From: a virus
Taxonomy: Duplodnaviria > Heunggongvirae > Uroviricota > Caudoviricetes
IMG/VR virus record: IMGVR_UViG_2706794693_000007
Reading direction: 5' to 3' (one strand)
DNA: 39,432 nucleotides
Part shown: piece by piece, positions 6,692 to 21,470 of the stretch
Layout: each line of letters opens with the position of its first letter
Position numbering within the stretch: position 1 is the first letter of the stretch
Notes under the pieces: model-generated
Databases searched by the model: none
What the model saw: only the letters and a program-made list of their open reading frames with translations
Told to the model about the DNA's origin: nothing
Position numbers and translations under genes: made by a program

Positions 6692-6893
6692 NNNNNNNNN
6701 NNNNNNNNNNNNNNNNNNNNNNNNNNNNNNNNNNNNNNNNNNNNNNNNNNNNNNNNNNNNNNNNNNNNNNNNNNNNNNNNNNNNNNNNNNNNNNNNNNNN
6801 NNNNNNNNNNNNNNNNNNNNNNNNNNNNNNNNNNNNNNNNNNNNNNNNNNNNNNNNNNNNNNNNNNNNNNNNNNNNNNNNNNNNNNNNNNNNN
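6692..6893. other. Run of 202 N (unresolved or masked)
   Basis: N characters in sequence. Confidence 0.95.
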
Positions 6894-14452: not shown

Positions 14453-14455
14453 GGG

Positions 14456-14656
14456 TTACTGCTTCGTTCTGAGAATTTTTTCGGTCTGTCGGCAGTGCCG
14501 GTAAAGCTGCGATAAGGGGAGGTTAAGCGCCCACTCCGGGCCGCTTTTTGTCACCATCCCCAGCACAATTGCGGCTTCTTCAATCTGATCCCGGCACTGC
14601 ATCTGGTCGCCCCCGTTCAGCGACCAGCTTTCCGGCCATCGCGGAATCAAGCAGGC
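14456..14656 (-). CDS. Out-of-frame extension of the tail assembly chaperone (candidate programmed frameshift product, G/GT-like)
   Basis: Frame opens only 2 codons upstream of the chaperone overlap, has no ATG, overlaps the last 25 codons of the chaperone ORF in the +1 frame and stops 3 nt before the tape measure start. Confidence 0.4.
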   Translation of the reverse strand, partial: ACLIPRWPESWSLNGGDQMQCRDQIEEAAIVLGMVTKSGPEWALNLPLSQLYRHCRQTEKILRTKQ

Positions 14657-14909
14657 TTACTGCCGCCATCAGTCGGGAGAGATCGCGCTCGCTGAGCTGT
14701 CCTATCTGACGCGGAGACAATGGCCCCTCAATCTGGCCGACAGCGGCAATCTGACGGCGCAGCAGCGCAATGCCGCGCAGTGCCGGTGAGGCCACAAGAA
14801 CCGGACCGTTTCGGGTTTCCATAAGACGCTCGGCCTCGCTCTCCGCATCAATGCTGTCTTTTGCCGTCAGTTCGCGGAAGGTGACGCGGTATTCACGGGA
14901 TTCCCCGAA
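14580..14909 (-). CDS. Tail assembly chaperone (Mu gp41-like), 5' end hidden in N-run
   Basis: Open frame after the N-run ending ...LVAERGRPDAVPGSD; position between tube and tape measure. Confidence 0.5.
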   Translation of the reverse strand, partial: FGESREYRVTFRELTAKDSIDAESEAERLMETRNGPVLVASPALRGIALLRRQIAAVGQIEGPLSPRQIGQLSERDLSRLMAAVSLLDSAMAGKLVAERGRPDAVPGSD

Positions 14910-15161
14910 NNNNNNNNNNNNNNNNNNNNNNNNNNNNNNNNNNNNNNNNNNNNNNNNNNNNNNNNNNNNNNNNNNNNNNNNNNNNNNNNNNNNNNNNNNN
15001 NNNNNNNNNNNNNNNNNNNNNNNNNNNNNNNNNNNNNNNNNNNNNNNNNNNNNNNNNNNNNNNNNNNNNNNNNNNNNNNNNNNNNNNNNNNNNNNNNNNN
15101 NNNNNNNNNNNNNNNNNNNNNNNNNNNNNNNNNNNNNNNNNNNNNNNNNNNNNNNNNNNNN
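14910..15161. other. Run of 252 N (unresolved or masked) spanning the end of the tail tube gene and the start of the chaperone gene
   Basis: N characters in sequence. Confidence 0.95.
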
Positions 15162-15446
15162 CCAGGCCTTCGTCATCATGTGGACTTCACCGGTATCGGC
15201 CACGAACTCAATCGTGACCGCAGTCCAGGTGTTGATTTCATCGGCAGCCGGTGAACCTTCTCCGCCCGCCGGGAATTTACAGTCCAGCGTCGCCTCACGG
15301 GGTTTCTCGCGATAGCCGTAAACTTTCGCGCCTTTCACCACTTCACGCTCAAAGCCGGACGGGGAGAACGTGGCCCCCTCAAGGGTGTCGTACTCCTGCC
15401 CGTTCACACGGATGGTGGCCGTGCCCTGATACTGTTTTCCGCTCAT
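15162..15446 (-). CDS. Tail tube protein (Mu M-like), 3' end hidden in N-run
   Basis: Starts MSGKQYQGTATIRVNGQEYDTLEG... immediately after the sheath gene. Confidence 0.7.
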
Positions 15447-15454
15447 GCCTTACC

Positions 15455-16957
15455 TCACAAAATGAAACGGATCTGCGCGGCCATGAAGCGGAACTGGTTA
15501 ACCAGATCCGGTGTACACATCACATCCAGACGGTTACGGTCTTTTGTGTTGCGCTCCACGAGCAGATTCTTTTTAAAGGTGTCCAGATTTTCGACCAGTC
15601 CCAGATCCACCCATTCTTCCCCCAGCGAAATTAACTGAAGTTTCATGATCTCCGGTGTCACGATATTCTGACCGGCACGAACGGGCGTCCCGTCATCAGC
15701 CAGTTTATGGCGCGGAAAACGCTGCGTGATAAAGGTGCGCAGGGAATAACGCAGATATGACAGGGTGTAGATGGTTTCCACATCCAGATAGCTGGGATCG
15801 ATTTCGCCGTATGCATTCTGACGGTACATCGTCACCTGACGTTCAATCTGCACCACATCCGCGGCCGCGACGGTCACCGTGGACATGCCGGTATAAAGCA
15901 GGCTGTTTCGCTCTTCCCGCGTCAGACGATCCGGTGCTTCAGGTGCCATACGGGCAGGCAGCGCCAGTGTCTGTAATGGTCGGGCCGGATCCGTTGACAG
16001 GGAGGGCGCACAGACCGCACAAATGGAGGCAGCCCAGACATAATCCGGCTCTGGTGCTTTAGGAATAGAAGTGCAGGTAAACAGGAAGTCATTACGGGAT
16101 TCACCAAAACTGGTTGCCGTACCGAAGGTGCCGGTATGCGCCATCCAGACCATACCGTCCGACATTTTTACCGGTCCCCAGCGTTTCAGCAGTTCATCCG
16201 CCAGAATTTTGAGATTTGCCGCATCCTTATAGGGCATGACGATGTAGTTGTACTGACGATTCCCCATCCCTGAGACGCTACGGGTGATATCGGGGTTTGT
16301 TGCCTTCTGTGTTGGCGCGACGAGCTCCAGCGTAAGACCGGCCGGTGTAGTTTCACCGTCATAATAGTTCACCCGTAAATCATGAGCTGAGCATTCACCG
16401 ATAAAGCGGGCGTTAACCCCCATGCTGCCTTTAAGTCCTTCAGCATTATCACCACTGACTTCAGCTGCGATAGCAGTGAATGGCGCATCAGTGTCAGCGT
16501 TAATGACCTTAGCCAGCTCTTCCACAAGCTCTTTACCTTTTTTCCCCTTACTGACGGGCAGGAGGTAACGGCGACCGCCGATGTAAACACTTAACACCCC
16601 GTCTGCCAATGCTGTTCCAATGATATTCATCACGCATGCCCTGGACTGACCTGTTCCAGCCCCCTGTGCAATGGCATATAACTCTGTGTCAGGGTTAATG
16701 GCGATAAATTCCTCTACCATCAGTGCAATCATGGAACCTCGCCCCCAGAGTTCTCTTGCTTGTGAAGCTCGGGTAATACGTACTGGTACATCAAGCTGAC
16801 CGCGCCCCTGAATGGTAGTGTCTTTCATTGCAGCCTGACCAAACAACAGTACCGCCTGACGCTGTGGTGGAGTGCCGGTCACGGCCATTGAATTATTGAT
16901 TTCAATCTGTACCAGCGGAATGCGATTGTTATCGCCGATATAATCAAAGTTAATCAT
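15455..16957 (-). CDS. Tail sheath protein (Mu L-like)
   Basis: 500 aa, synteny. Confidence 0.85.
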   Translation of the reverse strand: MINFDYIGDNNRIPLVQIEINNSMAVTGTPPQRQAVLLFGQAAMKDTTIQGRGQLDVPVRITRASQARELWGRGSMIALMVEEFIAINPDTELYAIAQGAGTGQSRACVMNIIGTALADGVLSVYIGGRRYLLPVSKGKKGKELVEELAKVINADTDAPFTAIAAEVSGDNAEGLKGSMGVNARFIGECSAHDLRVNYYDGETTPAGLTLELVAPTQKATNPDITRSVSGMGNRQYNYIVMPYKDAANLKILADELLKRWGPVKMSDGMVWMAHTGTFGTATSFGESRNDFLFTCTSIPKAPEPDYVWAASICAVCAPSLSTDPARPLQTLALPARMAPEAPDRLTREERNSLLYTGMSTVTVAAADVVQIERQVTMYRQNAYGEIDPSYLDVETIYTLSYLRYSLRTFITQRFPRHKLADDGTPVRAGQNIVTPEIMKLQLISLGEEWVDLGLVENLDTFKKNLLVERNTKDRNRLDVMCTPDLVNQFRFMAAQIRFIL

Positions 16958-17802: not shown

Positions 17803-18218
17803 ATAAAGCCCTTCTGGTTGCGCCCGAACACCGCCGCATCAGACTGCACCTGCGGTAAATCCCCGGATTCAGGGGCCGCACCGTCTGTATCCACGCCGAC
17901 CGGCACGTTACCGTTCATGACATCTTTCAGCCAGGCCAGCGCCTCACGGTAACGGTCACGCGCCTGATCGGATGCCCGCTGATCGCACAGGTAATAAAAG
18001 GCAATCGTGCAGCAATGCTGAACAAGGACCGCCGGAACCACCGCCAGCGGCAGCGTGTAACGGGAAGACAGATAGCTGTCGATAAGGGCAGACGCGTCCG
18101 TCAGTGCCCGGTTCAGCTTGCGCGTGTCCGGTTCATCCGAACGGGGCACGGCCAGTAATGGCCTGAGCAAATCCTCGCGGTAACGTGCCCGCATATCGGT
18201 TTCGGTGGCGTAATTCAT
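17799..18218 (-). CDS. Head-tail connector protein (Mu gp36-like)
   Basis: 139 aa, synteny. Confidence 0.65.
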   Translation of the reverse strand: MNYATETDMRARYREDLLRPLLAVPRSDEPDTRKLNRALTDASALIDSYLSSRYTLPLAVVPAVLVQHCCTIAFYYLCDQRASDQARDRYREALAWLKDVMNGNVPVGVDTDGAAPESGDLPQVQSDAAVFGRNQKGFI

Positions 18219-21349: not shown

Positions 21350-21470
21350 ATTGCCTCCGCATAAAGGATGAATATAAAATAAACAGGCGGTCAGTGTACG
21401 CTTAACTGGTAAAGTCGGTGCCTGCCTCCGGGTGGATCATGTATGCGGGTTCGACCCCCGCCACTGACCG

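Follow-up and report, generated by a model that had tools for sequence, protein, structure and literature searches.

Gene order and overlapping frames ahead of the tape measure gene

The window, by which we mean the whole stretch of 39,432 nucleotides that was analysed (IMG/VR record IMGVR_UViG_2706794693_000007), represents a complete Mu-like prophage that is flanked by the two halves of a split E. coli sgrR gene and that is matched at 100% (2.5 kb tested) by a chromosomal prophage of E. coli strain 600029. As taken from the annotation of a near-identical prophage, its gene content comprises a Mu transposase, a MuB-like AAA ATPase, Gam, Mor, lysis genes, head and tail genes, and Com/Mom. On the minus strand, the genes for sheath, tube, chaperone and tape measure follow one another, an order found with Pfam, with PHROGs and in the PGAP annotation of the near-identical prophage, and the chaperone gene is placed between the tube and tape measure genes of this contractile-tail Mu-like phage. 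The features of the region are:

15455–16957, minus strand: tail sheath gene (Mu L homologue; Pfam Phage_sheath_1 and Phage_sheath_1C; phrog_165, E 4.6e-195; PGAP in the near-identical prophage)
15162–15446, minus strand: tail tube gene (Mu M homologue), visible 5' part, with the 3' end under the N mask (Pfam Tail_tube PF10618, E 2.5e-25)
14910–15161, no strand: run of 252 N (mask), at the place where relatives hold 242 nt with the tube stop, a 14-nt spacer, the chaperone ATG and its first 49 codons
14580–14909, minus strand: visible part of the tail assembly chaperone gene (Mu gp41 homologue, lambda G analogue; Pfam Gp41_Mu PF23746; phrog_508)
14607–14615, minus strand: candidate slip site CGG GGG CGA, zero-frame codons 148–150 (Arg-Gly-Arg), containing the Mu octamer GG GGG CGA
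14600–14602, minus strand: in-frame ATG, a possible independent start that is not conserved, with GGGGG 7 nt upstream
14456–14614, minus strand: putative -2/+1-frame extension (Mu '41.5', lambda T analogue), from GGG 14614-14612 to TAA 14458-14456, about 50 residues
12395–14452, minus strand: tape measure gene (Mu gp42 homologue; Pfam TMP_3, E 2.1e-17; phrog_973, E 2.7e-198; PGAP 'tape measure protein')

Several further observations concern the prophage as a whole. Its nearest entries in the phage collection searched are Mu-like phages that reside inside Stx1a and Stx2c prophages, and a recombinase (Gin-like invertase) lies beside the tail-fibre genes, which is an invertible-segment layout. 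The window contains three runs of N, at 1538-1750 (213 nt), 6692-6893 (202 nt) and 14910-15161 (252 nt). In the relative L121, PGAP lists a 'tRNA-OTHER' at 17974-18053 (about 21390-21469 of the window) between the head morphogenesis and virion morphogenesis genes; ARAGORN found no tRNA at this site, neither in the relative nor in the window, and no Rfam family was found across the whole window.

The visible part of the chaperone matches the Pfam family Gp41_Mu (PF23746) with 105.8 bits against a cut-off of 27 (E 1.6e-30), which assigns it to this family, and it further matches phrog_508, "tail assembly chaperone", with an E-value of 8e-35. In a pairwise comparison it shows 51% identity to gp41 of Mu (E 2e-37), and its zero frame ends at TGA 14582-14580. 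The beginning of the gene is covered by the mask, the place of which is taken by the 242 nt described above in each of the 14 retrieved relatives in which both flanking anchors are present. In these relatives the chaperone ATG lies in a frame different from that of the tube gene, the CDS of which measures 366 nt in the relative L004. As the mask counts 252 instead of 242 nt, the apparent frame relationship is altered and a spurious ORF of 288 aa (14580-15446) arises, in which the mask joins the tube gene to the chaperone gene; the real length of the chaperone, as seen in a near-identical E. coli prophage, is 158 aa. The chaperone ORF proposed by the first-pass annotation thus holds for its 3' part, which is a Gp41_Mu chaperone, whereas the listed 288-aa ORF crosses the mask and is a tube-chaperone artefact.

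The second frame appears in the ORF list as 14456-14650 on the minus strand, with 64 aa and a TTG start. It opens after TAA 14659-14657, with GCC TGC as the two codons ahead of the TTG, stays open from 14656 to 14459 and is closed by TAA 14458-14456, which leaves 3 nt between this stop and the tape measure ATG (14452). The overlap with the chaperone gene comprises 71 nt if counted from the TTG and 77 nt if counted from the opening of the frame (about 24-25 codons). Relative to the chaperone the offset is +1, equivalent to -2, and the other alternative frame (-1/+2) comprises no more than 21 open codons and stops 98 nt short of the tape measure gene. Most of what had been said about this frame before, namely that it opens two codons upstream, overlaps about 25 chaperone codons, stops 3 nt before the tape measure start and is offset by +1 or -2 and not by -1, is borne out by the ORF list and by our reading of the strand. 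The statement that it has no ATG is correct for its 5' end only, since in-frame ATGs are present at 14602-14600 and 14557-14555.

The extension frame fills a gap of 127 nt ahead of the tape measure gene that otherwise lacks annotation. In the near-identical prophage, RefSeq/PGAP lists sheath, tube, a "phage tail assembly protein" (158 aa) and the tape measure, and leaves the 127-nt gap between the last two (window positions 14453-14579; L004 3331-3457) unannotated. In translation the extension peptide reads DQMQCRDQIEE...ILRTKQ, and it matches phrog_12783, a family of 54-aa entries of unknown function, with an E-value of 1.1e-38. Compared with the extension of Mu, the identity amounts to 54% in tblastn (E 3e-13) and to 52% in a pairwise BLASTP (E 1e-21); searches with the chaperone and the extension peptide by tblastn returned Mu, D108, SfMu and Mu-like phages of Yersinia, at 52-54% identity. 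The length of the open frame is at chance level, with about 24% of the +1-frame positions in the prophage genes lying in open runs of at least 66 codons.

The candidate slip site and its conservation

Within the overlap lies the octamer GG GGG CGA, the GGG and CGA of which are zero-frame codons of the chaperone (register 0). The longer stretch GAA CGG GGG CGA (14618-14607) is identical and in the same register in Mu, and it is also present in an 89%-identical Mu-like phage that is inserted in two Stx phages. The slip site itself is identical in Mu, in D108 and in phages of Pasteurella, Alteromonadaceae, Shewanella and Vibrio hosts.

For a comparative set, loci from annotated phages and viral contigs with a match to the chaperone were collected, and the chaperone stop, the motif and the alternative frames were located in each of them. 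The set holds 89 loci, i.e., the best 80 of 234 matches among viral contigs and nine phage or E. coli genome records, many of which are close relatives. Within this set of the best 80 of 234 contig matches and the nine records, GGGGCGA is found at the homologous place in all 89 loci, GGGGGCGA stands in register 0 in 78 of the 89, a variant with four Gs (AAG, TCG or CAG followed by GGG CGA) that keeps the +1-frame extension occurs in ten of the 89, and in 88 of the 89 the extension frame stays open up to, or close to, the tape measure start. The +1-frame extension measures 48-53 codons in all of these 88; in the 78 loci with GGGGGCGA, its end falls within a range from 17 nt inside the tape measure gene to 14 nt ahead of the start of this gene. 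The loci with four Gs (L061-L066, L068/L069, L101/L102) include some that are 75-80% identical to the chaperone of the window; a -2 slip would mispair the first codon position at such a site, and these lineages may either tolerate this or make use of a +1 shift.

The single exception regarding the open frame is L094 (~1540-1640), where one G fewer at the slip site fuses the chaperone and extension frames and where a later G-run shows a second one-base deficit. These indels probably reflect a homopolymer sequencing error or a decaying prophage. A search for a conserved slip site in related Mu-like phages, which had been suggested by the first-pass annotation, thus gave a clear positive result, and homologues with a closed second frame, which it had named as evidence against a frameshift, do not appear in the set apart from the special case of L094.

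The zero-frame GGG-CGA shows no synonymous variation, even between chaperones that are only 33-37% identical. In a non-redundant subset of 31 sequences, obtained by removal of those with at least 92% identity, 12 have a +1-frame stop at most eight codons upstream of the motif (in Mu, the distance is three codons), and 14 have a zero-frame stop at most eight codons downstream of it. The zero-frame stop follows one codon past the CGA in Vibrio phage martha and in Shewanella phage MuM16-2, and in the latter the whole overlap comprises only about 20 nt, with the motif at its centre. Since stops thus occur in both frames across the family, the motif is the only place where the two frames can join.

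Counted across the window, GGGGGCGA occurs twice, compared with 2.2 occurrences expected, and is hence at chance level. The second copy resides at 16739-16746 on the minus strand, inside the sheath gene. As neither the length of the ORF nor the count of the octamer exceeds chance, the case rests on homology and conservation: both frames are homologous to those of Mu, the slip motif does not vary among the relatives, and these two findings do exceed chance.

A stimulatory RNA structure downstream of the site was sought as well. RNAalifold returned only a trivial 3-bp helix for 20 diverse sequences, and the folding of the 50 nt that follow the site, evaluated for each sequence, gave a mean z-score of -0.85; the values for the window and for Mu are -1.5 and 0.0, respectively. 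A two-helix hairpin that was proposed by eye for the Mu/E. coli clade performed no better than shuffled or slid controls. We therefore reject a downstream stimulatory structure as a family-wide feature, and no conserved one was found in the Mu/E. coli clade.

Two local structures were noted in this context. In the window, the slip site lies within a 7-bp hairpin (14605-14625, minus strand; GGUCGCU-GAACGGG-GGCGACC), the complementary arm of which is absent in Mu and in the 89% relative, so that it is not conserved; the 86-nt stretch that holds it has a folding z-score of -0.73. In the clade of Pasteurella phage Pmp9 (L109, L112-L117), a stem of 7 bp starts 6 nt after the CGA and reads GCAGCAG…CTGCTGC in some and GCAACAA…TTGTTGC in other members, with three pairs changed on both sides and 97.6% of the cells paired. 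Folding z-scores reach -4.1 in this clade, which holds only six related sequences, and the stem is absent in the Mu/E. coli clade. It may represent a clade-specific stimulator of frameshifting.

A proposed -2 frameshift and its alternatives

From our point of view, the locus is most probably (with a probability of about 0.88) the recoding site of a Mu-type tail assembly chaperone gene pair in a Mu-like E. coli prophage, which would act by a -2 ribosomal frameshift, a reading that is drawn from sequence comparison. The proposal of the first-pass annotation that a programmed frameshift of the G/GT type leads into the +1/-2 frame is supported by the membership of the chaperone in the Gp41_Mu family, by the homology of the extension to that of Mu and by the presence of the slip sequence of Mu.

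According to this proposal, most ribosomes would read the chaperone gene to TGA 14582-14580 and give rise to the gp41 or 'G' product of about 158 aa, for which we predict 158 aa, 17.0 kDa and a C-terminus ending in …VAERGRPDAVPGSD. A minority of ribosomes would slip two nucleotides back at CGG GGG CGA (14615-14607), where the Gly-tRNA on GGG could re-pair perfectly with the GGG two bases upstream and where the Arg-tRNA (anticodon ICG) would, according to the tandem model for Mu, move from CGA to pair with GGC. Translation would then go on in the -2 (= +1) frame to TAA 14458-14456 and yield the gp41-41.5 or 'GT' fusion, which would comprise about 200 aa (22 kDa) with a C-terminal domain of 50 residues. 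A -2 slip at codons 149/150 predicts the junction …VAERGR-DQMQCRDQIEE… for tandem slippage or …VAERGG-DQMQ… if only the P-site tRNA slips, whereas a +1 slip would give 199 aa with the junction …VAERG-DQMQ….

By analogy with gpG/gpGT of lambda, the G part may coat the tape measure protein while the rare T extension may recruit the tube protein; the recruitment of tube protein would allow the tail to polymerise to the right length, and neither product would be expected to stay in the virion. That the frameshift takes place in the present prophage, how efficient it is and which partners its two domains bind is what we infer.

The same frame could also be reached by a +1 slip, during which a poorly decoded CGA would keep the A site waiting and the P-site Gly-tRNA would slide from GGG to GGC, with a fusion one residue short (…ERG-DQMQ…) as the result. 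The codon CGA is read by tRNA-Arg ICG through I:A wobble, which speaks for a +1 slip, and the ten loci with four Gs point in the same direction, as they keep the +1-frame extension although a -2 slip would mispair there. Tailed phages moreover vary at the chaperone step and use -1, -2 or +1 shifts (PMC5009743). The sequence taken by itself fits -2 and +1 alike; the window, however, carries the full five-G site of Mu, at which a -2 slip means perfect P-site re-pairing while the move from GGG to GGC means a wobble mismatch, and the shift of Mu is on record as a verified -2 event (AF083977.1; PMC3458567; PMC3498833). Because of the five-G site and the data on Mu, we regard a +1 slip as unlikely.

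One could further imagine that no frameshift occurs at all and that an independent small gene starts at ATG 14602-14600 (48 aa) or at TTG 14650, with the G-run serving as ribosome binding site. The GGGGG 7 nt upstream of the ATG is a plausible Shine-Dalgarno sequence, which makes some independent initiation physically plausible, and gene callers do annotate such ORFs separately, as can be seen from '41.5' of D108 and from the PHROG family of stand-alone 54-aa entries. The ATG, however, is kept only in relatives with at least 97% identity and is replaced by GCG in relatives with 84-92% identity, by CTG in Mu and D108 and by AAA or AAG in the Vibrio and Shewanella phages. In Mu and D108, moreover, neither ATG nor GTG nor TTG is found between the upstream stop and the slip motif, and the extension has no canonical start codon; the motif does not change even in phages that lack a start codon after it, and Mu is documented to make the fusion. 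As the start codon is not conserved, we reject an independent gene, which appears very improbable.

Slippage could also be placed at the level of transcription, in that RNA polymerase slips on the G5 run and deletes one G or adds two, so that the ribosome would translate a frameshifted mRNA without slipping itself. A homopolymer run is indeed located exactly at the shift point, and the indels of L094, both of them in G-runs, indicate that such runs are error-prone at the DNA or sequencing level. Productive transcriptional slippage, on the other hand, typically needs longer runs of A or T, for which five Gs are short; the invariant CGA beside the run is explained by tRNA re-pairing and not by polymerase slippage, and the annotation of Mu (AF083977.1) calls the event translational. 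We hence consider this mechanism hardly credible.

The same low standing applies to the view that the open frame is an untranslated chance feature of a G+C-rich spacer. It would agree with the 24% of positions that lie in +1-frame open runs of at least 66 codons and with an octamer count that equals expectation. It is excluded by the conservation of the extension peptide across genera (E 3e-13 to Mu, E 1e-38 to the PHROG family), and in 88 of the 89 loci (best 80 of 234 contig matches and nine records) the frame stays open as far as the tape measure start.

Finally, there is a slim chance that the -2 shift is not the only event at this site: either the G-run doubles as a Shine-Dalgarno sequence for the newly acquired ATG 14602-14600, so that a rare -2 fusion would be accompanied by a free T peptide of 48 aa, or the site shifts both +1 and -2 and would thus give rise to two fusion isoforms.

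Comparison with phages Mu, lambda and P2

In 2004, Xu, Hendrix and Duda reportedly described that the gp41/gp41-41.5 fusion of Mu arises by a -2 programmed ribosomal frameshift on GG GGG CGA. As such, the phenomenon is already known since 2004, and the only new element is its presence in an E. coli prophage which, like many database records, lacks its annotation. Biologically, the present locus represents a further copy of the textbook -2 frameshift of Mu, which belongs to the small number of natural -2 recoding sites that are known. It is of practical use for annotation, since the extension is either omitted (PGAP) or called as a stand-alone ORF from CTG (D108). In the D108 record the extension is listed as a separate gene, '41.5', that is annotated from this CTG, and the RefSeq record of Mu (NC_000929) contains no fusion CDS. 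Because GGG CGA after a G-run shows no variation among Mu-like phages from Escherichia, Pasteurella, Vibrio, Shewanella and Alteromonadaceae hosts, the rule 'Gp41_Mu match + GGGGCGA near 3' end' would annotate the fusion product reliably.

For Mu itself, the record AF083977.1 gives two products of the locus, the chaperone Mu_41 and the two-piece join Mu_56, and describes the latter as 'verified -2 translational frameshift in PMID 15469818'. The slippage on GG GGG CGA has been described as a tandem -2 event, for which the A-site tRNA-Arg (anticodon ICG) finds a better pairing in the -2 frame than it would in the -1 frame (PMC3458567). The efficiency of the Mu frameshift was found to be about 2.2% in vivo (PMC3498833) and 14% in a cell-free assay (2025 preprint, bioRxiv 10.1101/2025.10.02.679949). 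Mu is among the few known -2 cases (PMC5009743).

The present locus resembles gp41/gp41-41.5 of Mu in the Gp41_Mu family of its chaperone, the homologous extension, the identical GAA CGG GGG CGA in register and the +1/-2 offset, which is a hallmark of the Mu-type family, as documented for Mu. It is further alike in its place between the tube and tape measure genes and in an extension that ends just before the tape measure start. Some differences exist: the chaperone has a longer N-terminus (158 aa compared with 144 aa in Mu), the zero-frame tail after the slip site comprises eight codons instead of six, and the distance from the extension stop to the tape measure ATG is 3 nt instead of 14 nt. 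An in-frame ATG is found four codons after the slip GGG in the window but is missing in Mu. Every testable sequence-level feature by which the Mu frameshift is defined is present here; as regards an own start of the extension, the window has ATG 14602-14600, which is absent in Mu, in D108 and in the relatives with 84-92% identity. The frameshift was shown experimentally in Mu, and for the present prophage it is predicted from the sequence.

With gpG/gpGT of lambda, the locus shares the presumed role and the layout, in which a short chaperone made in large amounts and a scarce form with a C-terminal extension are encoded directly ahead of the tape measure gene; in lambda, the tape measure protein is bound by G and the tube protein by T (PMC5009743). 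The Pfam search revealed no similarity in sequence to lambda G. The mechanisms differ in that lambda relies on a -1 shift on a heptanucleotide slippery sequence, whereas the shift proposed here is -2. The lambda-type -1 class, with its X XXY YYZ heptamer, does not fit the locus, since the extension is in the +1/-2 frame, and a -1 frameshift is rejected because the -1 (+2) frame closes after 21 codons.

The E/E+E' pair of P2 belongs to a contractile-tail phage too, occupies the same gene position and gives two products from overlapping frames, and the present chaperone shares with it the type of tail, the position and the overlapping-frame layout. P2 is listed among the -1 cases (PMC2628397). 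A weak Pfam match of the chaperone to the E/E' family of P2, Phage_TAC_7 (PF10109), stays with 23.8 bits below the curated cut-off of 25 and was not accepted.
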